A program made the translations under genes and the position numbers. From assembly GCA_038231455.1 (NCBI GenBank), contig JBBRLI010000006.1, positions 32,001 to 96,000 of the forward strand: a DNA stretch of 64,000 bases. The letters run 5' to 3'. This stretch comes from Vulcanimicrobiales bacterium (GTDB lineage Bacteria > Vulcanimicrobiota > Vulcanimicrobiia > Vulcanimicrobiales > Vulcanimicrobiaceae). Below the pieces are notes generated by a model. It was not told the origin of the DNA. It worked only from the letters and a program-made list of their open reading frames with translations, and did not search any database. Below are positions 3,918 to 32,861 of the stretch, piece after piece (the first letter of the stretch is position 1; the number at the start of each line of letters is the position of its first letter).

Positions 3918-4325
3918 TTATTTAACCGTGACCGTCGCGCGCATGAATGCGTGGTAGGCGCAGAAGTACGGGTACACTCCGGCCTTTGCGTAGGTCTTGC
4001 TCCAGGTCTGGCCCTTGGCCATGTAGCCTGAATCGTAGCTCTTGTCATCCGCCGTCACCGTGTGCGCCGACTCGTCGTCGTTGATGAACTGGATCGTGTC
4101 GCCGACCTTGACGACGGCGTCCTTGGGCGAATAGGCGAAGTCTTTCATATGGACGACGAGCGCTGGGGTCGGCTGCGGCGAGGGGCTCGCGGCCGGTGAG
4201 GCCGGCGCCGAGGGCATGCTCACCTGGGGCATGCTGGGGCTGGGGCCTGGTGCGGGCTGGGCGAGCGCGACCGAGGTCGTCAGGGCGAGGACTATCCAAA
4301 GCGGAGCGATCAAGCGAAATCCCAT
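3918..4325 (-). CDS. Secreted cupredoxin (plastocyanin/amicyanin-like)
   Basis: Signal peptide, Pro-rich linker, type-1 Cu ligands HTVT...FCAYHAFM; start could be 4346. Confidence 0.9.
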   Translation of the reverse strand: MGFRLIAPLWIVLALTTSVALAQPAPGPSPSMPQVSMPSAPASPAASPSPQPTPALVVHMKDFAYSPKDAVVKVGDTIQFINDDESAHTVTADDKSYDSGYMAKGQTWSKTYAKAGVYPYFCAYHAFMRATVTVK

Positions 4326-4493
4326 CGTAGTCTTGTGAACGAACAAATCGCTAACGGCATTTCATCTTGGCCGGATGCCGGTTAAGCGCCCCTTTGGACG
4401 CCGCGTGCGGTACGACAATCGTCGCGCAGGCCGAAAACATGGTTGACCGAAGCCTGTTGTGTTGAATGTGTCGCGTCGTGGAGTGGTGGTTTC

Positions 4494-7400
4494 GTGCTCG
4501 AATCGTTGGTGAAAGTTGCTCTTCCGGAACTCGGGGAGTCCGTCACCGAAGGCTCAATCGTCGAGTGGCGCAAGAAAGTCGGCCAGTGGGTCGCTGAAGG
4601 CGATACGATCGTCGATGTGACGACCGACAAAGTCGATGTCGAAGTGCCCGCGACGGTATCCGGTGTGATCACCGCGCTGTACGGCGGCGAAGGCGATACG
4701 GTTGCCGTCGGCGCGACGCTTGCCGAGATCGACACATCCGCGGCAAAACCGGAAGGCGGCCCCGAAGCCGCATCATCATCCGCTGCTGCGGCGCCTGCCG
4801 CAACAGGGACGAAGGCCCCCGCCGACGTCGTCACGCCATCATCGTATGGCGCGGCCGGCAGTGCCGCCACGCCGCCGACGATGACAAACGGCAACGGCAA
4901 AACCGGTGGCACCGCCTCCGCGCACGCGCGCCGTCTTGCCGAACGGTATCACGTCGACATCGCAAGCATTCGCGGAACCGGTCCCGATGGGTTGATCGTG
5001 CGCGAAGATGTCGAACACGCGATCGCGTCGGGTTCGGCCAAGCCTGCCTCAAACGGTGCGAGCGCTCCGGCGATCAACTTCCCCGCGCCGTCCGCGCAAG
5101 CAACGATCACGACGCTCAAAGGCCCGCAGGCCGTGCTTGCGACGTACATGGATCAGTCGCTCTCGATTCCCACCGCGACGTCGTTCCGGACGCTCTCGGT
5201 TGGTGCGCTCGAAGCGCGACGTGCCGAGCTCAACGGCGCGCTCAAAGCCGCCGGCAAATCGGACAAGATTTCGTTCACGCATCTCATTGCCTACGCACTC
5301 GTCGTCGCAGCAAACGAAGCACCCGCGATCACCGCGAGTTTCCGCCGCGACGGCGCGACCGTGCAGAAGATCGAAGCCGGCGTGCATCTTGGCATCGCCG
5401 TCGACATGACGCGTAAAGATGGTTCGCGATCGCTGGTCGTGCCCGTAATCAAAGGCGCAGCGTCGATGGATTTCGTCGCGTTCCGCGCGGCGTACGAAGC
5501 GCTGATTGTGAAAGCCCGCGATGGCAAACTGACCGCCGACGAACTTTCCGGCGCAACGTTCACGCTAACGAATCCCGGCGGCATCGGAACCATCGCCTCC
5601 GTGCCGCGTTTGATGGTCGGCCAAGGCGCGATCATCGCCGCTGGCGCGATCGCGTATCCGCCCGGCTTCGCGCACGCGCCCGATTCGACGTTAAAACAGC
5701 TCGGCATCGAAAAAGTCATGACCATGACCTCGACCTACGATCATCGCGTGATCCAAGGTGCGCAGTCGGGTGAATTCCTCAAACGCGTCGATGAGTTGCT
5801 CGCAGGCGCAAGTGAATTTTACGAAGGCGTCTTCCGCGCGTACGGTCTTGCCTCACCCCGTGTGATGGCGACCGCCGTAACGACGAACGCGCGTCCGACG
5901 AGTTCGGCGAATGCAGCGGCTCCGGCTGCCGCCGGAACGGCCGCATCCTCGCAAACGGCGGGCGCAACCTCGGAAGAGATGCTGCGCGCGATCGCCGCCG
6001 GGATGGCGATGGTCTCATCGTATCGCCGTCACGGCCACCTTGCCGCGACGCTCGATCCGCTTGGGAAAGAACCCGTCGGCGACCCATCGCTCGATCCACG
6101 CAATTACAGCCTCACGCCCGCGCTGATGAGTGCGATCCCCGCATCGGTGCTGCGCGTCAAAGTGCCCGGCGGCACGATGGCCGACGTCTTGCCGGCACTC
6201 CGCGAAACGTACAGCGGCACGATCGCCTACGAAGTCGAGCACATCTCCAATACGCAGCAGCGTGAATGGCTGCGCGAATATATCGAGAGCGGCATGCATC
6301 GTACGCCGCTCACCGCGCAGCGCAAAGTGCAAGTCCTCCAGCGTCTCACCAAAGTCGAGACGATGGAACGGTATTTCCGTAAACAGTTCATGTCGCAGAA
6401 GACGTTCTCGATCGAAGGCCTCGACGTGATGGTTCCGATGATCGAAGAGATGATTTCAATGCTTGCCGAAGACGGCACCAAAACGGCCGTTCTCGGCATG
6501 GCACATCGCGGACGCCTCTCGACGATCGCGCACGTCGTCAACCGGCCGTACGAAGAACTACTCGCCGAATTTGAGGCGGGCTCGATGAAGACGGCGCTTA
6601 GCGACGGCGATGAATCCGACGACGCAACCGGCGATGTGAAATACCATCACGGCGCCGATGGAATCTATGCAACGTCGATGGGCACGCAGATCGCGGTTAA
6701 ACTCGCGAACAACCCGAGTCACCTCGAGGCCGTCGACGGTGTCGTCGAAGGCATCACGCGTTCGCTGCAAACCGATCACGCGCAAAACATCGCGCGCATG
6801 GACTTCACGGCAGCAGCCCCCATCCTCATCCACGGCGACTCGGCCTTCCCGGGTCAAGGCGTGGTAAGCGAAGTCCTCAACCTGCAGGCCCTCGTCGGCT
6901 ATGCGACCGGCGGCACGATCCATATCATTTCGAACAATCAAGTCGGTTTCACGACCGATCCGAACGAGAGCCGCTCGACGCGTTATGCATCGGATCTTGC
7001 CAAAGGTTTCGACGTGCCGATCGTGCACGTCAACGCCGATGACGTCGATGCGTGCATCGCCGCGGTGCATTTCGCCATCGACTATCGCCGTAAATTCGGC
7101 CGCGATACCGTGATCGATCTGATCGGCTATCGCCGCTTCGGTCACAACGAACAAGACGAGCCGATGTACACTCAGCCGGGGATGTACGAGACGATCAAGG
7201 CGCATCCGACGGTGCGCGAACTTTTTGCCGCGAATCTCGTCGCGCAAGGCGTGCTCAGTGCCGATCAAGTGAGCGAACTGCAAGATGACGCGCAGGCGCG
7301 TATCGCCGAGGCGCACGCAAACGTCAAGAACGGCAACATCGCCAAGCTCATCGGCGCGGATAAAGTCAAGATCCACATCGATGAAAAGCCGGCTTCGACC

Positions 7401-8567
7401 GGTATCGAGAAGCGGAAATTGCTGGCGTGGGCAGACGCCCTCGTCGCAACGCCCGAGGGATTTACGCCGAACAAGAAACTCGTCTCGCAATTCGACAAGC
7501 GCAAAAAAGCGTTGCAAGCCGAAGGCGAAGTCGACTGGGGCCTAGCCGAGGGCCTGGCGTTCGCATCGCTGATCGATGAGGGGACGCCCGTGCGTCTCAC
7601 CGGTCAAGACTCCGAGCGCGGGACGTTTAGCCACCGTCACGCGGTGCTTCACGATGCCCTTACCGGCGAGAAGTACGCGCCGCTCCAGCATCTGCCCGGC
7701 GCTAAAGCGTCGTTTGAAATTCATAACAGCCCGCTCTCCGAGTACGCGTGTCTTGGCTTTGAGTACGGCTACTCGACCGGGTTGCCCGAGGCGATGGTGC
7801 TGTGGGAAGCGCAATTCGGTGACTTCAATAATGGCGCCCAGATCATCATCGATCAGTTTATCGCATCGGGTGCGGCGAAGTGGGGTCAAACCACGCGTTT
7901 GACGCTGCTCTTGCCGCACGGCTACGAGGGTGCAGGTCCCGAACATTCGAGCGCGCGTTTGGAACGCTTCCTGCAACTCTCGGCCGAAGGCAATATTCGG
8001 ATCGCGAACTGCACGACGGCGGCCCAGTATTTCCACTTGCTGCGCCAGCAGGCGCGCGCGAAGGCGGCCTATCCGCTCGTCGTGCTCACGCCCAAGAGTC
8101 TCTTGCGTAACCGCGCTGCCTACGGAAAGATCGACGATCTTGCATCCGGTTCGTTCCGGGAAACGATCGACGATGCGAAGTTCGCAAGCGATAAAGGGGC
8201 CGTCACGCGCATCTTACTTTGCAGCGGGAAAATCTATCACGATTTGATCGCATCGCCGCTCTACGCGCAAACGAAGTCGACCGCGATCGTGCGCGTTGAA
8301 TTGCTCTCGCCGCTGCCGAAGGTCGCGATCCTCGAGACCATCGCGTCCTACCCCAATGCCAAACACGTCATTTGGGTTCAGGAAGAGCCCAAGAACATGG
8401 GCGCTCGCGCGCACGTGCGCCGTCGTTTAGTCGAAGAACTCGCGCCCCAGGTTGCGGATGTCGAGTACGTCGGTCGGCCCTACCGCGCGTCTCCCTCGGA
8501 AGGCTATCCGGGCGCGCACGCCGTCGAGCAAGAGCGGATCATCCGCACGGCGCTGACCGAAAATTAG
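4494..8567 (+). CDS. kgd: Multifunctional 2-oxoglutarate dehydrogenase (lipoyl + E3-binding + E2 catalytic + E1), Kgd/SucA-like
   Basis: Lipoyl TDKVDVEVPA; E3-binding ARRLAERYHVDIASIRGTGPDGLI; E2 TYDHRVIQGA; E1 GMAHRGRL, GDVKYHHG, HGDSAF, WEAQFGDF, GPEHSSARLERFLQ; start approximate. Confidence 0.93.
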   Translation: MLESLVKVALPELGESVTEGSIVEWRKKVGQWVAEGDTIVDVTTDKVDVEVPATVSGVITALYGGEGDTVAVGATLAEIDTSAAKPEGGPEAASSSAAAAPAATGTKAPADVVTPSSYGAAGSAATPPTMTNGNGKTGGTASAHARRLAERYHVDIASIRGTGPDGLIVREDVEHAIASGSAKPASNGASAPAINFPAPSAQATITTLKGPQAVLATYMDQSLSIPTATSFRTLSVGALEARRAELNGALKAAGKSDKISFTHLIAYALVVAANEAPAITASFRRDGATVQKIEAGVHLGIAVDMTRKDGSRSLVVPVIKGAASMDFVAFRAAYEALIVKARDGKLTADELSGATFTLTNPGGIGTIASVPRLMVGQGAIIAAGAIAYPPGFAHAPDSTLKQLGIEKVMTMTSTYDHRVIQGAQSGEFLKRVDELLAGASEFYEGVFRAYGLASPRVMATAVTTNARPTSSANAAAPAAAGTAASSQTAGATSEEMLRAIAAGMAMVSSYRRHGHLAATLDPLGKEPVGDPSLDPRNYSLTPALMSAIPASVLRVKVPGGTMADVLPALRETYSGTIAYEVEHISNTQQREWLREYIESGMHRTPLTAQRKVQVLQRLTKVETMERYFRKQFMSQKTFSIEGLDVMVPMIEEMISMLAEDGTKTAVLGMAHRGRLSTIAHVVNRPYEELLAEFEAGSMKTALSDGDESDDATGDVKYHHGADGIYATSMGTQIAVKLANNPSHLEAVDGVVEGITRSLQTDHAQNIARMDFTAAAPILIHGDSAFPGQGVVSEVLNLQALVGYATGGTIHIISNNQVGFTTDPNESRSTRYASDLAKGFDVPIVHVNADDVDACIAAVHFAIDYRRKFGRDTVIDLIGYRRFGHNEQDEPMYTQPGMYETIKAHPTVRELFAANLVAQGVLSADQVSELQDDAQARIAEAHANVKNGNIAKLIGADKVKIHIDEKPASTGIEKRKLLAWADALVATPEGFTPNKKLVSQFDKRKKALQAEGEVDWGLAEGLAFASLIDEGTPVRLTGQDSERGTFSHRHAVLHDALTGEKYAPLQHLPGAKASFEIHNSPLSEYACLGFEYGYSTGLPEAMVLWEAQFGDFNNGAQIIIDQFIASGAAKWGQTTRLTLLLPHGYEGAGPEHSSARLERFLQLSAEGNIRIANCTTAAQYFHLLRQQARAKAAYPLVVLTPKSLLRNRAAYGKIDDLASGSFRETIDDAKFASDKGAVTRILLCSGKIYHDLIASPLYAQTKSTAIVRVELLSPLPKVAILETIASYPNAKHVIWVQEEPKNMGARAHVRRRLVEELAPQVADVEYVGRPYRASPSEGYPGAHAVEQERIIRTALTEN

Positions 8568-8583
8568 CTTTTCTTTGTAAATT

Positions 8584-10980
8584 TTGCGCGTAGAGGGCGT
8601 GTCCGCCCCCGACGCGCAAACCCGAGGCGTGGGAACACGCATCCGCGAGCGCGTGGCGCTGTTGTTCGCGATTCCATTTCTGCTCTTAGCCCTTATTCTC
8701 GGCGGGGCTCTTTGGCTTGTCGTCGTCTCCGATGCAACAGCGCGTGAAGGGCAGAACGCAACGACGGTGATCACGGCTGCAGAAGCCGTGCTCGCCAACC
8801 TGCTCGATGACGAAACGGGCGCGCGCGGCTACGTCCTCACGCAAAACCCGCAGTTTCTCGGCCCGTACTCCTTGGCTCGGCGAGAACTCGATGTGCGGCT
8901 CACCGAGCTCCGGCATATGGTGGATGCGAATGAGTCGATCGGACCGGCGGTGGAGGCGATCGGCGCCTCGGCGGGCAGCGAACTCTCGATTCTCGACTAT
9001 TATGTGAAACTTCAGAGAACCGGACATCACGCGGCTGCCGTTTCAGCCGTTGCCTCGCGCGGCGGGATGCTCGAGATGGAACGCTTGCGTGTGCTCGTCA
9101 AAGCGATTGCCGATCGCGAATATGCACATCGTTTCGATGCCCGCTCGCGCCTTGCCATCGAGCAGCGGCTTGCGATCGTCGTGCTCGCCCTCGCAACGGT
9201 GCTTGGATTCGTGCTGGTACTCGTGCTCAATGGGACGGTAGCGCGACTCATCGTCGGACGCATCGAGCGCATCGCTGCCAACACCAAGCGCTTCTCGGCG
9301 GGCGAGGAGATGTCGCCGCCGCTTGCCGGAAATGACGAGATCGCGCAACTCGATGCCTCATTGCACGCAATGGCCGCGCTCCTTCGCGATCGGCAACGGG
9401 CCGTGGATGCGGCCCTCGAAGAAGCCGTTTCGGCTTCGCGTCTCAAAAGCGAATTTGTTGCAACGATGAGTCACGAGATTCGCACCCCGATGAACGGCGT
9501 GATCGGCATGACCGAACTCTTGCTCGAAACCGATCTTTCATCCGAACAGCGCGAATTCGCTATTACGGTTCGCGATTCGGGTCAAGCCCTCTTACGCGTC
9601 ATCAACGACATCCTGGACTTCTCGAAAATCGAAGCCGGCCACCTCGAGCTCGAAGAAGCGGATTTCGAGGTCATTAGTACGGTCGAATCGGTTGCCGCAC
9701 TCCTCATGCCGCAAGCGAATGCCAAGAACGTCGTCCTCACAACGCACTTCGAGGCCGCCGTGCCGCCGGTCGTCGGCGGCGATCCGGGACGTGTTCGGCA
9801 AGTCCTTCTCAATCTTGTCGGCAATGCGATTAAGTTCACCGATCGCGGGAGCGTCGTCGTCTCGGTGTCGCTTGCCGAGCAGACGATCCGTTACACGACC
9901 TTGCGATTTACGATCAAAGACAGCGGTATCGGAATCAATCGCGAAACGCGCGAACTCTTATTCGAACCATTCCGTCAAGTCGACGGTACGACGACGCGCC
10001 GTTACGGCGGGACGGGCCTCGGCCTTTCGATCTCCAAACGTTTGGTGGAATTGATGGGCGGCGAAATCGTCGTCGAGAGTTTGCCGGGAATGGGATCGAC
10101 GTTTTCGTTTGCGGTGCGCTTCCGAAGTCGCGATGCGACATCCGTGCCGCGCACCTCAGCCGACGTCCGCGGTCTGCGCGCAATCGTCATCGATGACGAT
10201 GCGGCCTCACGCGAGGTGCTCGCAAGCTACCTCAAGGCGTGGGGGCTCCGCGCCGAGTCCTTCGGCGAGCCGAGCGTGGGTCTCGAGCGCATGCGCGCGC
10301 GTGCGGCGGATGGGGAGCCGTTCGATATCGGCGTGATCGATTACGCGATGCCGGAGCTTGATGGTTTCGCACTCGCCGCGACGATCCGCGAGGATGTGAA
10401 CCTTCGGGCGATGCGGCTCATCCTTGCAACAGCGCATGACGAAGAAGGTTTGGGCTCGCGGACGCGCGCGGCCGGCTTCTCCGCCTGTCTCATTAAACCG
10501 GTCCGTCAGTCGCAGCTCTTCGATGCGATCGTGAGTGCGCGAACGCCACGCGCGCTAAGCGACGTGCCCGCGTTCCTTCCGACGATCTCCTTACATGCAA
10601 AATCGCCCGGCGCGCGTATTCTGCTCGTTGAGGACAACCTCGTCAATCAGCGTGTCGCCATGCGTCAGTTGCAGCGCTTCGGGTATTCGGCCGACATCGT
10701 CGACAATGGGCGTGCGGCCGTCGATGCACTCGTCGCACAATCGTACGATTTGATTTTGATGGATTGCCATATGCCCGAGATGGACGGCTTTGAGGCGACC
10801 GTCGCGATCCGCAAACGCGAAGTGCAATCGAAACGCCGCGTGCCGATCGTTGCGATGACGGCAAACGCGCGCCGTGAAGATCGCGACGCGTGTCTTGCGG
10901 TGGGGATGGACGACTATCTTGCCAAACCCGTTGCGCTTGCGGATCTGCAGCGGATCCTCGAAGCGTGGCTGCCGACGTAA
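8584..10980 (+). CDS. Hybrid sensor histidine kinase (CHASE3-HAMP-HisKA-HATPase-REC-REC)
   Basis: [10 protein letters not shown] (CHASE3), [28 protein letters not shown], two receiver domains. Confidence 0.95.
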
Positions 10981-10983
10981 GGG

Positions 10984-11409
10984 CTAGAAACGCAGGCGTT
11001 GTTTTGCGGAGAGCTTCACGATGACCGCATGCATCTCGATAATCGTGCGCTTATCGGGGAGTTCGATCTCGCGCATCACTGCGCGACACCGTGCCAGGAC
11101 GCTCCGATAGTCGGCGTTGAGCGTCTCGTTGCCCCATGCCGGTGAGATACGGAGTGGTTCGTCGATTTCGATCGTGCAGTGTGGGTCACGCGCGAGCAGT
11201 GAGGCAAGTCGACCGCTGCGCGAGAAATTCATCACGAATGCACGGCCGTCGAAGCGATAGGATTGGGCGACCACATAGGGCCAGGTGTCGTCGTTGACGC
11301 CGATGCGGCACACGCGCTCGCGTTCGACGAAGGCGCGAACCTCGGGCCAATCGTTCCAGGCAAGGTCTTCGCGGCGCGTGTCGCTCTCAAAAAAATCAGG
11401 GACCGCCAT
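10984..11409 (-). CDS. Pyridoxamine 5'-phosphate oxidase-like (FMN split-barrel) protein
   Basis: VCRIG...PYVV...DYRSVL...LSAK pattern. Confidence 0.7.
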   Translation of the reverse strand: MAVPDFFESDTRREDLAWNDWPEVRAFVERERVCRIGVNDDTWPYVVAQSYRFDGRAFVMNFSRSGRLASLLARDPHCTIEIDEPLRISPAWGNETLNADYRSVLARCRAVMREIELPDKRTIIEMHAVIVKLSAKQRLRF

Positions 11410-11418
11410 ACGTCGCCT

Positions 11419-12453
11419 TTAGGCGCTCGCTCGTGGCCTACCCGTTGATTGGCGGATGCGGAGTTCGACGGAAATCGATTCGATCAGTGGTTCTGGGGTT
11501 GCTTCGTGAAGTGCGCGAGACATCGCGCGAGCACCGAGTTCGCGCAGCGGAACGTGGACCGTCGTCAGACCTGGCGTGACGTCGCCCGCCGCCGGAATGT
11601 CGTCGAAACCGCAGAGCGACATCTGCTCGGGCACGCTGATTCCGCGTTCGCGGAGGTCGAGGAGCGCGCCGATCGCCATCTCGTCGTTGAGTGCGAGAAG
11701 TGCGGTAATTGTCGGATCGTGATCGAGCAGCGTCATCGCCGCCGCGCGTCCGGAATCGCGCGTGAAGTCACCATCGACGATGTGATCCGGTGCGAGGACG
11801 ATTCCCGCGCGTACGAATGCATCGCGCACGCCGTCGAGGCGGTCGTGGCTGGTCGTGAGAATCGGCGGGCCGCCGATCACGCCGATGTTGCGATGACCCA
11901 GATCCAGGAGATGTTGCGCGATCGCACGACCGCCGGCAACGTTATCTGGGACGATGGCATCGGCTGCTGCGTGGTGTCGGCCAATCAGCACGGCGCGTCC
12001 GCCCGAGGCGGTAAATCCCTCGAGTGCATCGAGAATCTGCTGGTTGTAATCGAAGTCGTGCAAACCGGACCCCGCCATGATCAGGGCACTCGCGCGGTGC
12101 GCTTGCATCAAGGTGACGTAGTCGATTTCGCGTGCCGGTTCGCGATGGCTATTGCACACCAGGAGCGACCGTCCCGCGGCTTCGGCCATGCTCTCGATGC
12201 CGCGCAAGACTTCGCTGAAGTACGGGCCGCCGATATCGTGGACAATGACGCCGACGATGGATGAGCGCGAGCGGGCGAGGGCCTGCGCGTTCGCGTTACG
12301 GACGTAGTGCATCGCGCGCGCGGCAACCATGACCTGCTCGCGAAGCGGCCCGCTGACCTTACGATCGCTGCCGTTGATGACGCGTGAAGCCGTCGCGAGT
12401 GATACACCCGCGAGTTTGGCCACGTCCATAAGCGTGACCGGTCCCTTATTCAT
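11419..12453 (-). CDS. LacI family transcriptional regulator
   Basis: TLMDVAKLAGVSLATASRVING HTH; GFDD, LTTV motifs. Confidence 0.96.
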   Translation of the reverse strand: MNKGPVTLMDVAKLAGVSLATASRVINGSDRKVSGPLREQVMVAARAMHYVRNANAQALARSRSSIVGVIVHDIGGPYFSEVLRGIESMAEAAGRSLLVCNSHREPAREIDYVTLMQAHRASALIMAGSGLHDFDYNQQILDALEGFTASGGRAVLIGRHHAAADAIVPDNVAGGRAIAQHLLDLGHRNIGVIGGPPILTTSHDRLDGVRDAFVRAGIVLAPDHIVDGDFTRDSGRAAAMTLLDHDPTITALLALNDEMAIGALLDLRERGISVPEQMSLCGFDDIPAAGDVTPGLTTVHVPLRELGARAMSRALHEATPEPLIESISVELRIRQSTGRPRASA

Positions 12454-28188: not shown

Positions 28189-29445
28189 ATGGATCTGCTG
28201 CGTCGCGATATCGAGCTTGACTGGCACCCCGACGCCTGCGCGCGCGTCCCATACGCCCTCTACACCGATCGCGCGATTTACGAACGCGAACTCGATCGGC
28301 TGTTTTATCGCGGTCACTGGTGCTATGTCGGCCTCGAATGCGAGATTCCAAATTTCGGCGATTTTAAGCGCACGTCGATCGGCGAACGCGACGTGATCGT
28401 CGTGCGTGACAAGAGCGGCGCGATCAATGTGGTCGAAAACCGCTGCGCGCATCGCGGCGTTCAGTTTTGTCAAAAATCGTTCGGCCAAACGAAAACGTTC
28501 GTGTGTCCGTACCACCAGTGGAGTTACGACCTGCGTGGCAACCTCATCGGTCTGCCGTTTCGCAAAGGCGTCAAGCAAGGCGAGAAAGTCAACGGCGGCA
28601 TGCCGCCGGATTTCGATCTTGCCGATCATTCGCTGACGACGCTCGCGGTTGAGTCCTGGAACGGCGTCATTTTCGCCTCGTTCGATCGCGATGTCGCGCC
28701 GCTCCGTTCGTTTGTCGGACCCGAAGTTGGGAACTACATGGATCGCATCTTCGATGGCCGCGAGCTCACGCTGCTTGGCTATTCACGTCAGCGCATTCCG
28801 GGCAACTGGAAGCTCATGCAAGAGAATATCAAGGATCCGTACCATCCGGGTCTCTTGCATACGTGGTTCGTTACGTTCGGCTTGTGGCGCGCGGATCAGC
28901 AGTCACAGATGGTCGTCGATGCGCGCGGTCGTCACGCGGCGATGGTTTCGCGCAAGAACGATGGTGGCAAGAGCGATGCAGTAACTGCCGGTGTGACGAG
29001 TTTCAAAGAAAACATGGTGCTGCAAGATGACCGGGTGCTCGACGTGGTGATCGAACCGTGGTGGAACGGGCCGACCGTCACGATGCTCACGCTCTTTCCG
29101 AGCTTGATCGTGCAGCAGCAAGTCAACTCGCTCTCGACGCGCCAGATCATCCCGACCGGAACCGACACCTTCGATTTTGTCTGGACGCACTTCGGATTCA
29201 AAGATGACGATGCGGAAATGACGCGGCGTCGCTTACGTCAAGCCAATCTCTTCGGCCCCGCGGGATATGTCTCGGCAGACGATGGTGAGGTGATCGAACT
29301 CTCGCAGCGCGGCTTCGATCAGCACGGCGATCTTGCAACGGTGTGTGAACTCGATGGCCGCGGGATGGGCGGCGCCGATCACAACGTCACCGAGACGCTC
29401 ATTCGGTCGATGTACGGCTACTATCGCGAGGTGATGGAACTATGA
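28189..29445 (+). CDS. nagG: Salicylate 5-hydroxylase-like Rieske oxygenase, large subunit
   Basis: CAHRG...CPYHQW; NWKLMQENIKDPYHPGLLHTWF; QANLFGPAGYVSADDGEVIE, all recalled from NagG. Confidence 0.88.
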   Translation: MDLLRRDIELDWHPDACARVPYALYTDRAIYERELDRLFYRGHWCYVGLECEIPNFGDFKRTSIGERDVIVVRDKSGAINVVENRCAHRGVQFCQKSFGQTKTFVCPYHQWSYDLRGNLIGLPFRKGVKQGEKVNGGMPPDFDLADHSLTTLAVESWNGVIFASFDRDVAPLRSFVGPEVGNYMDRIFDGRELTLLGYSRQRIPGNWKLMQENIKDPYHPGLLHTWFVTFGLWRADQQSQMVVDARGRHAAMVSRKNDGGKSDAVTAGVTSFKENMVLQDDRVLDVVIEPWWNGPTVTMLTLFPSLIVQQQVNSLSTRQIIPTGTDTFDFVWTHFGFKDDDAEMTRRRLRQANLFGPAGYVSADDGEVIELSQRGFDQHGDLATVCELDGRGMGGADHNVTETLIRSMYGYYREVMEL

Positions 29446-29927
29446 TTGCCGCTCCCGTCGTGTCGGTCGCCGACCGCTTGCGGATCGAAGACCTCTATGC
29501 CGAATACTCCGCATGTTTAGATGAGGGGCGCTACGATGCGTGGCCCGAGTTTTTCACCATCGATTGTTCGTACCGAATCGTCGCGCGCGAAAATTACGAT
29601 CGCGGGCTGCCGCTCGCGCTCTTATCGTTCGAAAGCCGCGGAATGCTGATCGACCGCGTGTACGGCATTACGCAAACGCTCTTCCACGAGCCGTACTATC
29701 AGCGCCACATCGTCTCGGGCTTTATCGTCAAGCCGGACGGCAATGCGTTCGCGGTCCGTGCGAATTATCTCGTCGTGCGGACGAAAGCGGCGGCCTTGCC
29801 GGAAGTGTATAGCGTCGGGCGCTACGTGGACCGGATCGTCGAACACGACGGCTCGCTGCGATTCGCAGAAAAAATCTGCATCTTCGATAGCGAGCTCATC
29901 GCAAACTCGATGATCTATCCGATCTAG
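29442..29927 (+). CDS. nagH: Salicylate 5-hydroxylase-like small subunit
   Basis: RENYDRGLPL, LSFESRGMLIDRVYGI, PYYQRHIV, FDSELIANSMIYPI. Confidence 0.88.
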   Translation: MIAAPVVSVADRLRIEDLYAEYSACLDEGRYDAWPEFFTIDCSYRIVARENYDRGLPLALLSFESRGMLIDRVYGITQTLFHEPYYQRHIVSGFIVKPDGNAFAVRANYLVVRTKAAALPEVYSVGRYVDRIVEHDGSLRFAEKICIFDSELIANSMIYPI

Positions 29928-30806
29928 CTAGCGCACCGCGCCAACGGGTGCGCCGATGCGGACCGCGTTGCGTAGGATGCCGATCTTTTGGATCTCGACT
30001 TCCATCACGTCGCCGTCTTTGAGGAACTCGGGAGGCGTGCGCGCAAAGCCGACGCCTTCGGGCGTTCCCGTTGCGATAACGTCGCCCGGTTCGAGCGTGA
30101 GACCGTGCGAGAGGCTCGCGATGATACGACGCAGGTTGAAGATCATCGCGGCGGTGTTGGCCGACTGTTTCACATCGCCGTTGACGCGCAGCGCGATATC
30201 GAGCGTCTGCGGATCGCCGATCTCGGCTGCATCCACGATCCAAGGGCCAATCGGGCACGAGTTGTCGAGCGTCTTGCCTTTGAACCACTGCACGTGTTTA
30301 TTTTGGAGGTCGCGCGCGGTAATGTCGTTCAGGCACGCGTAGCCAAAGATGACATCGAGGGCGTCCGCTTCGCTGACGTTCTTGCATTTTTTGCCGATGA
30401 CGACCGCGAGCTCCGCTTCCCAATCGTACTGGCTCGAAACATCGGCCATCAGTTCGAGCGTTTGATCGGGGTCGGCGACCGCAGTCGGCGCCTTGGAAAA
30501 GAACGTGGGAACGTCCGGAAGCTTGAGCTCGACGCCGCGTACGCGTGCGCCCTCTTCGGCGTGCGCGAGATAGTTGCGGCCGACGCAGAAAATGTTCTTC
30601 CGCGGTGTCACCGGCGCATGCAGATGCGCCGATGCAAGCGGGACCGCGGGACTCAAGGCGCCGAGCGCTGCTTTGCGGTCGGCTGCATCCATCGCGATGA
30701 ATTCTTCAAGGCGCGTGACCGCCTCCGCGAACGGGCGAATCGAATCGCCTTCGAGCACCCCGGGGCGCCGAGCGCTGCCGCCGGTGCTGAACGTTACGTA
30801 TCGCAT
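29928..30806 (-). CDS. Fumarylacetoacetate hydrolase family protein
   Basis: CVGRNY, DWEAEL, NDITARD, GDVIATGTPEGVG; SD GAAGGAGA before ATG 30806. Confidence 0.92.
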   Translation of the reverse strand: MRYVTFSTGGSARRPGVLEGDSIRPFAEAVTRLEEFIAMDAADRKAALGALSPAVPLASAHLHAPVTPRKNIFCVGRNYLAHAEEGARVRGVELKLPDVPTFFSKAPTAVADPDQTLELMADVSSQYDWEAELAVVIGKKCKNVSEADALDVIFGYACLNDITARDLQNKHVQWFKGKTLDNSCPIGPWIVDAAEIGDPQTLDIALRVNGDVKQSANTAAMIFNLRRIIASLSHGLTLEPGDVIATGTPEGVGFARTPPEFLKDGDVMEVEIQKIGILRNAVRIGAPVGAVR

Positions 30807-30895
30807 ACTGTCTCCTTCGATGCGCATCTCGCGGGTCGCGGCGCGGGTCGAAACGTATCACCGGGGTATCGCCTATTCCTGCGAGAGGACGTTCC

Positions 30896-31834
30896 ATGAT
30901 CGCCGCCGATTCGCTCGACCAAGTTCTGAGGGCAGCCCAGGTCCATGCCGCGCAGCCGCTCTGGACGGTCATGGACGCAATGGTGCCGCCGGCGCCGAAT
31001 CCGCGCGCGGTTCCCCACCTCTGGCGGTATGCCGACCTCCGTCCGCTGTTGCTTCGCGCGGGCGAACTCGTCGGCACCGAAGAGGCCGAGCGTCGCGTGT
31101 TCATGCTGGTGAATCCGGCCATGCGGGCGCCGTTCACGACCGATACGCTGTATGCGGGCCTACAGTACATTCGCCCGGGCGAAGTCGCACGGGCACATCG
31201 GCACATGGCGTTCGCACTGCGCTTTATTGTCGAAGGCGACGGTGCGTACACGGCGGTCGGCGGCGAGAAGGTCACGATGGAACGCGGCGACGTGATCCTC
31301 ACGCCAACGTGGGATTTTCACGATCACGGGCATGAGGGCAAGCAAGGAATGATCTGGCTCGACGGCCTGGATCTGCCGCTCTTTCAGTGGCTACCGACCA
31401 ATTTTGCGCAGCCGTATCACGAGCCGCGTTATCCCTCGGAACCGTCGACTGCCGATTCTCACTTGAAATATCCGTGGGCCGAGATGCAAGCCAAACTCGA
31501 CGCGCACGTGGGGCCGTTTGCCGAAGAACGCTACGCACACCGGCACACGGGCGGTCATATCTCGAAGACGCTCGGAGCTGCAGCCGAGCGCCTTGCGGCC
31601 GGCGCCACCTCGCCGAAGCGACGCGAAACCGCAAGCTCGGTCTACCACGTGCATAGCGGCACGGGCATGACGACCATCGGCGAGACGACGCTGCACTGGG
31701 AATCCGGTGATACGATCGCGATTCCGGCGTGGATGCCATTCGAACATCACGCAACGGATGCGACGTATTTCTTCCGGTTCGATGACAAACCGATGCTCGA
31801 TGCTCTCGGCTACTACAAGCGCGAGGACGGCTAA
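30896..31834 (+). CDS. Gentisate 1,2-dioxygenase-like bicupin
   Basis: AERRVFMLVNP, TLYAGLQ, AHRH...ALRFI, HDHG, WLDGLDLP. Confidence 0.87.
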   Translation: MIAADSLDQVLRAAQVHAAQPLWTVMDAMVPPAPNPRAVPHLWRYADLRPLLLRAGELVGTEEAERRVFMLVNPAMRAPFTTDTLYAGLQYIRPGEVARAHRHMAFALRFIVEGDGAYTAVGGEKVTMERGDVILTPTWDFHDHGHEGKQGMIWLDGLDLPLFQWLPTNFAQPYHEPRYPSEPSTADSHLKYPWAEMQAKLDAHVGPFAEERYAHRHTGGHISKTLGAAAERLAAGATSPKRRETASSVYHVHSGTGMTTIGETTLHWESGDTIAIPAWMPFEHHATDATYFFRFDDKPMLDALGYYKREDG

Positions 31835-32322
31835 TGGATTCGGTCATCGATGCGAGTCTGCCGTTTCCCGAAGCGGATCTGCGCGATCATCCGCCGCGCA
31901 ACGCGCGCGTGATGCTCGGCGGCTTGTATTTTCTTGCGCGCACGATCGATAAAGCCAAAGCGAAAATCAACGGCACGCTCGGCGAGTACAAGATCGGCCC
32001 CGGTATTTCGATGTATCTCTTCGAGTGGCTCGGCATCGGCGATGCGGATTTCGTCGATGCGGTACGCACGCTCAAAACCGACGAGGCGATCGTCGCCTGG
32101 ATTCACGAACGTACCGATGCAACGCAGTACGACGATATCAATATGCGCCTTTCGACGCGTGCGATTCGCGATGACGAACACTTTGAGGCGGTGCTTCCGG
32201 CCTACCCGTTACTGAACGAACATCCGCACTTGCGAAATTGGTTTGAGATTTTCGATCTCGACGATGAGTGGATTTTCGATCAGAAAAACCGCAAACACGT
32301 GCCGAGCGGTCAGTACGACTAG
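31834..32322 (+). CDS. DUF5069-like protein
   Basis: DLRDHPPR...LGGLYFLARTIDKAKA...GTLGEY; TAATG overlap. Confidence 0.75.
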   Translation: MDSVIDASLPFPEADLRDHPPRNARVMLGGLYFLARTIDKAKAKINGTLGEYKIGPGISMYLFEWLGIGDADFVDAVRTLKTDEAIVAWIHERTDATQYDDINMRLSTRAIRDDEHFEAVLPAYPLLNEHPHLRNWFEIFDLDDEWIFDQKNRKHVPSGQYD

Positions 32323-32861
32323 TGGAGCTACCGCAAGTCGGCGAGCACGCGCCGGACGTCGTCCTCGCATTGCCGATTCCGCGGCCCGCGCTCGTCTTGT
32401 GGCTGCGGCACGTCGGTTGACGATTCTTCGCTGAGCCGCTCGCGCAGTTGCGCGAACTCGACCGGGACTTCGCCGCACTCGGCGTGAGCGTACGCGCGAT
32501 CACGATCGGCTCGCAAGACAAAGCCGAGAGATTTTGCGCGATTCACAACCCCGAGGCGATCTGCATCGGCGATGTCGACATGCACACGTATAAGGCGATG
32601 GGGTTCGATGATTTCGATCTGACGAAACTCAAGACGACGCCCGCGCTCACCGCACGTCGCGCAGAAAATGAAGCCGCCGGATTCGTTCAAAACTGGGACG
32701 AAACGAAAATCGAGGATGCCGCGCAAAATCCGGGAGCCGCACTCATCGATCGCGACGGCGTGCTGCGCTGGATCTACCGCGGCGTCCATCCCGGCGATTT
32801 GCCCGCGCTAAAGGCGATGTTCGACGTGACGAAACGGTCGATCGAACCGGGTCGGACGTAG
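32322..32861 (+). CDS. AhpC/TSA (peroxiredoxin-like, thioredoxin-fold) selenoprotein, Sec at TGA 32418-32420
   Basis: GTG 32322 overlaps the upstream TAG and is in frame with ORF 32448-32861. Reads PQVGEHAPD...VLWLRHVG-U-RFFAEPLAQLRE; C-terminal QNPGAALIDRDGVLRWIY. Confidence 0.78.
32440..32455 (+). promoter_or_regulatory. Putative SECIS hairpin
   Basis: TCGCGC-AGTT-GCGCGA; loop starts 25 nt after the TGA, G at loop position 2. Confidence 0.55.

Follow-up and report, generated by a model that had tools for sequence, protein, structure and literature searches.

A conserved dioxygenase–DUF5069 gene pair in a putative salicylate/gentisate locus of Vulcanimicrobiota, and the selenoprotein gene beside it

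Overview

The stretch of DNA analysed here, termed the window, is 64,000 nucleotides long and spans positions 32001-96000 of contig C6 (JBBRLI010000006.1) of a 3.71-Mb metagenome-assembled genome, which is 93.7% complete and designated G000. Its source belongs to the Vulcanimicrobiota, a phylum also known as Eremiobacterota or WPS-2. A set of genes in the window appears to form a salicylate-to-gentisate ring-cleavage locus that is typical of one family of this phylum. The core of the locus would be a divergent pair, with a gene for an FAH-family hydrolase on one strand and, on the other, a gene for a gentisate 1,2-dioxygenase-like bicupin (GDO) followed by one for a DUF5069 protein of a Cys-less clade. 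The DUF5069 protein is proposed to be a functional partner of the dioxygenase/hydrolase pair, the hydrolase to act directly on the product of ring fission, and the selenoprotein gene that follows DUF5069 to be a passenger. A probability of roughly 0.7 is assigned to this reading as a whole. The coupling of GDO and DUF5069 is new.

The conserved core

The three core genes, in window coordinates, are as follows.

29928-30827, minus strand: FAH-family hydrolase (PF01557), long form with an N-terminal domain, 299 amino acids; candidate maleylpyruvate or fumarylpyruvate hydrolase
30896-31834, plus strand: gentisate 1,2-dioxygenase-like bicupin (GDO); TIGR02272, 278.4 bits; two Cupin_2 stretches
31834-32322, plus strand: DUF5069 protein (PF16798) of the Cys-less, GDO-linked clade; fusions to GDO in L046, L091-L094, L097, P0004 and P0005

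The hydrolase gene diverges from the GDO gene and converges on a pair of Rieske oxygenase genes. The initial annotation of this DNA had named nagG/nagH-like genes, an FAH hydrolase and a gentisate dioxygenase; all are real and correctly placed, and the minus strand of the hydrolase gene had gone unmentioned. The start/stop overlaps by which GDO, DUF5069 and the selenoprotein gene had been said to be chained, TAATG (31832-31836) and TAGTG (32320-32324), can be read directly in the sequence. Scans for promoters and terminators and for inverted repeats between 27 and 34.5 kb of the window gave nothing exceeding chance. Among sequencing runs, no RNA run turned up, and the single DNA run found probably stems from the source sample.

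Neighbourhoods were compared in two collections of loci. Seeding with DUF5069 retrieved 57 loci with a DUF5069 alignment, and the 46 at 43% identity or more (L053-L098) were counted as related. Seeding with GDO, 401 genomes of the phylum were searched and 47 matched, all within a single family, f1; these yielded 31 orthologue loci (at least 62% identity) and 18 paralogue loci (52-60%). A third set, of 41 genomes, comprised G000 and 40 related genomes.

A common gene order is seen in the 46 DUF5069-seeded loci: pntB-pntA-(SBP)-(RieskeB-RieskeA)-FAH on one strand and GDO-DUF5069 on the other, followed by orf91-orf175-A2M-polA. In 37 of the 46 loci the gene immediately ahead of DUF5069, on the same strand, is GDO, and in 27 of the 31 GDO orthologue loci (26/30 without the unpublished genome G365) the gene immediately after GDO is DUF5069. 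An FAH orthologue is present in 40/46; four of the six misses are contig ends, and two loci, L085 and L095, truly have no FAH gene. The gap between GDO and DUF5069 is 72 nt or less in all 37 loci where they adjoin, and in five of these (L091-L094, L097), in the related genome G014 and in the database proteins P0004 and P0005, the two are fused in one reading frame. The suggestion in the initial annotation that DUF5069 is coupled to the dioxygenase is borne out by these adjacencies and fusions.

Such an arrangement could be no more than inherited gene order in one family, devoid of functional meaning. Nearly all loci lie between pntAB and orf91-orf175-A2M-polA, all the genomes bearing this GDO belong to f1, and DUF5069 is a multi-copy gene. 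The fusions found in one clade and the invariably short spacing speak against it, as does the behaviour of the genes outside the common block. At L095/L146, GDO and DUF5069 have moved as a unit into a different neighbourhood (ADH-ALDH-GDO-DUF5069-flavin hydroxylase) where FAH is missing, and at L096, in yet another neighbourhood, DUF5069 and FAH overlap on one strand. In sequence, moreover, the GDO-linked DUF5069 copies make up a clade of their own, in which 28 columns are invariant. The fusions and these three loci indicate that the link between GDO and DUF5069 goes beyond inherited order, and inheritance by itself is a quite improbable explanation.

Because the position of DUF5069 is kept, because it travels with either enzyme to other contexts, and because it is fused to the C-terminus of GDO in one clade, the DUF5069 protein appears to be a functional partner of the two enzymes. 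It may assist GDO itself or the hand-over of the GDO product. Seven loci devoid of GDO retain FAH and DUF5069 about 70 nt apart. Among five GDO-less genomes that were tested, four have a full-score GDO elsewhere, and no hydrolase or isomerase adjoins that GDO in the three loci examined.

Two genes recur beside the core: one for an IclR regulator, placed between FAH and GDO in six loci, and one for a PF12831 FAD oxidoreductase. What stands between DUF5069 and orf91 varies across genomes: glyoxalase, PQQ propeller or phage-like genes, or unknowns. At one locus, L093 (CAWJPK010000006.1), the FAH-GDO/DUF5069-orf91 block occurs twice in inverted orientation (4039-6684 and 8008-12265), either as a real palindromic duplication or as an assembly artefact.

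The DUF5069 protein

The window protein scores 72.2 bits against PF16798, where the cut-off is 27. A cysteine within the motif G-E-Y-x-Y-x-C-P-x-D is conserved in the family (23 of 27 aligned rows; 18/22 without the unpublished genomes), and in the window protein and its orthologues this Cys is replaced by Pro. Canonical copies read G-E-Y-H-Y-N-C-P-M-D, whereas the GDO-linked clade reads G-E-Y-K-I-G-P-G-I-S; the clade thus departs from the family in having P-G-[IL]-S for C-P-M-D and in being fused or translationally coupled to a dioxygenase. Arg17, Arg22, Arg36, Arg109, His19, Lys40, Tyr52, Ser59 and Tyr61 are invariant in it.

An AlphaFold2 (AF2) model of the protein has a pLDDT of 88.9, and fold searches with it match only 3omd, a DUF5069 protein of unknown function from Leptospirillum rubarum with the same all-alpha fold (VIA Z 16, rmsd 3.1 over 137 residues; Foldseek E 2.5e-7), a sole match that says nothing on the fold being new. 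Complex prediction from the GDO and DUF5069 alignments gave a score of 0.00, which is no evidence on binding in either direction. For the fusion that occurs naturally in G014, AF2 gave a model of moderate confidence (pLDDT 79, pTM 0.78) that is uninformative on docking.

DUF5069 genes occur in 2-8 copies in all 41 genomes of the comparison set (37/37 without four unpublished ones) versus none of 14 model genomes. G000 has further copies at C20:23896-24345, C1:289559-290221, C5:55994-56356 and C4:38337-38852, and its five copies stand in unrelated contexts, which include a hut operon, CBS/CGL genes, an arginase gene with an AI-2E transporter gene, and methyltransferase genes. Two database proteins show other domain combinations. 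P0003 (316 amino acids) has a Formyl_trans_N domain fused to a DUF5069 domain that is 63% identical to the GDO-linked clade, and P0006 (433 amino acids) consists of three tandem Cys-less DUF5069 domains. A full-text literature search found no paper on DUF5069.

The step after ring opening

Gentisate pathways are classed by how maleylpyruvate, the ring-fission product, is handled: it is isomerised by glutathione (GSH)-, mycothiol- or Cys-dependent enzymes, or it is hydrolysed directly. The initial annotation recognised no isomerase in the window. This holds for the 57 open reading frames (16 + 41) covered by the Pfam scan of the window and extends to the whole genome, where neither a GST-type nor a DinB-type maleylpyruvate isomerase was found. 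In the 93.7%-complete genome nothing matches the maiA/NagL profile TIGR01262, MDMPI_N (PF11716) has no match among 23 candidates scored, and the only genome hit to DinB_2 (PF12867), at 24 bits, is under the cut-off. A search for maleate isomerase/Amdase (PF17645) also gave no match in the genome, but its control matched nowhere either. As for markers of low-molecular-weight thiol synthesis, GshB and BshC have no match in the genome, and the only MshC hit, at 315 bits, falls under the cut-off of 485. With no known isomerase and no thiol-synthesis markers, isomerisation by a known thiol-dependent route is unlikely.

The same negatives would leave direct hydrolysis by the long-form FAH protein as the most likely fate of the ring-fission product, and this route is tentatively favoured, at a little short of even odds. 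Membership of the FAH family is clear (249.9 bits for PF01557 along its whole profile). The maleylpyruvate hydrolases of solved structure belong to this family too and have about 300 residues, close to the 299 of the window protein. Against solved chains the protein scores 221 bits with YisK (8sky), 142 with maleylpyruvate hydrolase 6jvv and 92 with 4maq, a putative fumarylpyruvate hydrolase. In the same phylum there are also paralogous GDO-FAH pairs that have no third gene (L145, L148, L155, L157, L158). The locus resembles the direct-hydrolysis branch, represented by HbzF and by maleylpyruvate hydrolase 6jvv/6jvw (6jvv has 303 amino acids), in having a long-form FAH hydrolase and no isomerase; it differs in that the match is moderate, YisK scoring better, and in that a maleate-handling gene was not identified.

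The nag pathway of Ralstonia sp. U2 consists of NagGH, the GDO NagI, the GSH-dependent isomerase NagL and the fumarylpyruvate hydrolase NagK. The window shares with it a NagG-like large and a small oxygenase subunit, a bicupin of the GDO family and an FAH-family hydrolase. It differs in that G000 has no match to a NagL-type GST or to GshB, the electron-transfer genes NagAa/NagAb are not nearby, a DUF5069 gene follows GDO, and the hydrolase is of the long, ~300-residue form. An excerpt of one report puts the length of NagK at ~235 amino acids and that of HbzF of Pseudomonas alcaligenes NCIMB 9867 at ~285 (PMC11705938).

The best solved relatives of the window GDO are all gentisate or salicylate dioxygenases, the top one being the Escherichia coli GDO 2d40 (238 bits). 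His101, His103 and His142 are invariant across 29 orthologues. From GDO structures, these are presumably the three-His iron ligands of the N-terminal cupin.

The position of DUF5069 raises the question of whether it supplies the isomerisation step itself. It could be a cofactor-independent maleylpyruvate isomerase or tautomerase that acts between GDO and an FAH protein of fumarylpyruvate type, docked on or fused to GDO, in a thiol-free pathway. The gene occupies the slot between both enzymes and partners each separately, with GDO where FAH is missing (L095) and with FAH at L096 and the seven GDO-less loci. The GDO genes found elsewhere in four of the five GDO-less genomes, with no hydrolase or isomerase adjoining in the three loci examined, fit such a role as well, as do the fusions to GDO and the failure to find a known isomerase, GshB, BshC or MshC. 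The invariant Arg/His/Lys/Tyr/Ser set would suit a polyanionic substrate. Such an activity would nevertheless be unprecedented; the fold carries no known catalytic motif, its sole structural relative is 3omd, and the clade has no Cys that could act as a nucleophile. Paralogues reside in unrelated contexts (hut operon, CBS/CGL, arginase), the close relative P0003 is fused to a formyltransferase-like domain, DUF5069 is missing from some GDO orthologue loci, and GDO-FAH pairs without it exist. On this evidence an isomerase role for DUF5069 is a serious but less probable alternative, and direct hydrolysis by the FAH protein stays the favoured route.

The Rieske oxygenase pair

Two genes upstream of the core encode the putative salicylate-hydroxylating oxygenase.

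28189-29445, plus strand: Rieske large (alpha) subunit, salicylate 5-hydroxylase-like (NagG-like); PF00355, PF00848
29442-29927, plus strand: Rieske small (beta) subunit (NagH-like); PF00866, SnoaL_4

The start of the beta gene overlaps the alpha gene by 4 nt. Compared with solved chains, the alpha subunit scores highest with 7c8z, the large subunit of salicylate 5-hydroxylase (623 bits, E 3e-186, residues 11-416, its full length), and the next-best chain or family reaches 313 bits. Scores against the NCBIfam models AndAc (388 bits; cut-off 750) and AndAd (129 bits for beta; cut-off 230) are under the thresholds. With an alpha subunit closest to the characterised salicylate 5-hydroxylase and a beta subunit carrying PF00866, the pair is NagGH-like.

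In at least 12 other genomes (L054, L055 and L059 among them) FAH, RieskeA and RieskeB share one strand, and the Rieske orthologues there are 83-86% identical. The pair in the window is inverted relative to these, and no flanking inverted repeat stands out around it. The NagGH-like pair is an optional add-on to the conserved core and is inverted in this genus. A PF12831 FAD oxidoreductase is found in related loci instead of a ferredoxin/reductase pair.

The selenoprotein gene

The last gene of the overlapping chain contains an in-frame UGA codon.

32322-32861, plus strand: selenoprotein, peroxiredoxin-like 2/SelL-related, motif HVG-U-RFF; GTG start, 179 residues with TGA read as U
32418-32420, plus strand: UGA codon 33, for selenocysteine (Sec); the sole in-frame TGA of the open reading frame
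32439-32455, plus strand: hairpin resembling a selenocysteine insertion sequence (SECIS), stem CGCGC..., loop AGUU; begins 18 nt after the UGA

It is a genuine selenoprotein gene. Four orthologues among the 40 related genomes, at 51-60% identity, each have one in-frame TGA at the same site (5/5 genes), and 17 consecutive nucleotides after the UGA (CTCGCGCAGTTGCGCGA) are invariant in the five, third codon positions included. A hairpin of 6-7 bp with an AGUU loop is predicted over the invariant stretch. An invariant stem cannot show covariation, and the folding z-score of a 66-nt single-sequence stretch is an unremarkable 0.22; the case for a SECIS element therefore rests on conservation. The genome encodes selA and selB (contig C28), selD and tRNA-Sec, so that a conserved in-frame UGA, a downstream hairpin and the Sec machinery are all present. 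A sequencing error or a pseudogene stop was considered as the origin of the TGA and rejected, since the codon is conserved in five genera together with the invariant hairpin. The selD gene (C7:149899-150819) itself has one in-frame TGA, and SelD is thus probably Sec-containing.

The protein passes the PF13911 AhpC-TSA_2 threshold (32.8 bits; cut-off 27), misses that of NF040769, the SelL-related redox protein (77.6 bits versus 120), and matches no solved structure by sequence at E <= 0.01. An excerpt of a review of the prokaryotic selenoproteome of May 2026 lists a peroxiredoxin-like AhpC/TSA family, cd02970, with a UxxS motif (PMC13188914). Judged by its sequence, the window protein is a member or a variant of this known peroxiredoxin-like kind. 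Like the cd02970/NF040769 family it has a thioredoxin-fold AhpC-TSA_2 domain whose redox motif opens with the only Sec; its own motif, U-[RT]-F-F, differs from UxxS and is devoid of a resolving Cys or Ser, and its placement in cd02970 would be putative. Database homologues form 73 clusters (P0007-P0079), every one of which covers 76% or less of the query; six homologues that were read start at or just past the UGA, and no Cys form was seen. The group looks like an obligate-Sec clade whose public gene calls are systematically cut at the UGA.

The initial annotation had coupled the selenoprotein to the gentisate genes and named the co-occurrence of GDO, DUF5069 and the Sec gene across genomes as a check. 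The linkage of GDO and DUF5069 is conserved, that of the Sec gene is not: a Sec homologue is present in none of the 57 loci retrieved with DUF5069, including the 46 related ones. Conversely, GDO, DUF5069, FAH and Rieske genes are found in none of the four Sec orthologue loci of related genomes, which hold instead beta-oxidation genes, selA-selB, DLH/PadR/AcrB genes, or MmyB/MFS/STAND genes. Only three loci came back when metagenomes were scanned with the Sec protein, and of two at 72% identity neither has gentisate genes. Among the 41 genomes, the Sec gene occurs in five and this GDO in three, and both occur only in G000. At one of the orthologue loci (L019, G018:C218, 4483-9397) the Sec gene lies near selA-selB with one unknown gene between.

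The sister species G001 offers a view of the history of the gene. There, a 137-nt spacer after DUF5069 still contains a stretch of about 85-100 nt that is homologous to the Sec gene at its 5' end and in which GTG has become GCG. Thus the Sec gene was present at this site in the ancestor of the genus and was later deleted in G001. The same genome has lost most of the Rieske pair (~260 nt of alpha are left) and carries a frameshift in GDO, and its FAH and DUF5069 genes are intact. This genus is the only one in which the Sec gene follows DUF5069, and the gene is a passenger. Co-translation is probable in this setting, and the gene product would be a general selenol peroxidase or reductase and no enzyme of the pathway.

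An earlier speculation was that a selenol nucleophile for the cis-trans isomerisation of maleylpyruvate comes from the lone-Sec protein, by itself or together with DUF5069. The TAGTG overlap does suggest translational coupling to DUF5069, the GDO-linked DUF5069 clade has no family Cys, neither thiol-synthesis markers nor a canonical isomerase were found, and G001 lost the Sec gene together with the Rieske pair while its GDO became frameshifted. The idea is unsupported, given the non-conserved linkage. The Sec gene is missing from all 46 related loci, and G014 has an intact fused GDO-DUF5069 gene and FAH in a genome with no Sec homologue anywhere. The Sec orthologues adjoin beta-oxidation, selA-selB, DLH/PadR or MmyB/MFS genes, and the protein has the thioredoxin fold of AhpC-TSA_2, in a peroxiredoxin-like UxxS family already listed in the portion of the review cited (PMC13188914). 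A selenol isomerase is largely refuted and has only a very slight chance of being correct.

Perhaps this genus alone recruited the Sec protein as a non-catalytic guard of the oxygenase genes that is co-expressed with GDO-DUF5069 and detoxifies peroxides or quinones. The start/stop overlap with DUF5069, the lack of any spacing to the convergent orf91, the peroxiredoxin-like family of the protein and the joint decay in G001 of the Sec gene, GDO and the Rieske pair, where FAH and DUF5069 are intact, would all suit such a role. Its basis is a single lineage, however, and other genomes have unrelated genes between DUF5069 and orf91. Recruitment as a local guard, close to the milder idea of the initial annotation that the protein protects against quinone or ROS by-products, is a minor but real possibility for this genus, and the gene is better described as a passenger.

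Evidence weighing against the proposed reading

Several observations weigh against the reading of the locus given above. The loci are kin, and the DUF5069- and GDO-seeded sets come from the same phylum and probably overlap, an overlap that was not checked; the locus counts are thus not independent. Most of the related loci are one syntenic block (pntAB ... polA) inside a single family, and the counts mirror shared ancestry. The genes of the core can also be found apart. DUF5069 is missing in four of the 31 GDO orthologue loci and GDO in nine of the 46 DUF5069 loci, and therefore none of GDO, DUF5069 and FAH strictly needs the others as neighbours. At the GDO paralogue loci, DUF5069 follows GDO in one and is missing in the other 17.

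The assignment of substrates is subject to similar reservations. The GDO fails the TIGR02272 equivalog cut-off (278.4 versus 442.1 bits), and its substrate may therefore differ. The best solved relative of the FAH protein is YisK, an oxaloacetate decarboxylase, so that the FAH substrate is not readable from sequence. The scan of the 57 window open reading frames turned up neither a ferredoxin nor a reductase to serve the Rieske oxygenase. Finally, the correlated decay in G001 is also what a local functional link between the Sec gene and the oxygenases might produce; it is the sole such hint.

Other genes in the window

Two further genes with recognisable domains lie upstream of the locus.

4443-8567, plus strand: fused lipoyl, E2 acyltransferase and E1 2-oxoglutarate dehydrogenase domains in a single open reading frame of 1374 amino acids
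20456-21499, plus strand: second Rieske oxygenase, of the VanA (vanillate O-demethylase) type, 7 kb upstream and adjoining a SufBD-like gene

The fused E2-E1 architecture is the same in the actinobacterial OdhA/Kgd.

Biological implications

In an uncultured phylum that is widespread in soil, sediment and peat, the known maleylpyruvate isomerases and the thiol-synthesis markers were not found; the dioxygenase has instead a conserved and sometimes fused DUF5069 partner. The selenoprotein, eye-catching as it is, is not the key to the locus. GDO, DUF5069 and FAH constitute a concrete three-protein system that is open to bench test. Should DUF5069 prove to be an isomerase or tautomerase, this would be the first function for PF16798 and a fourth solution to the isomerisation step.

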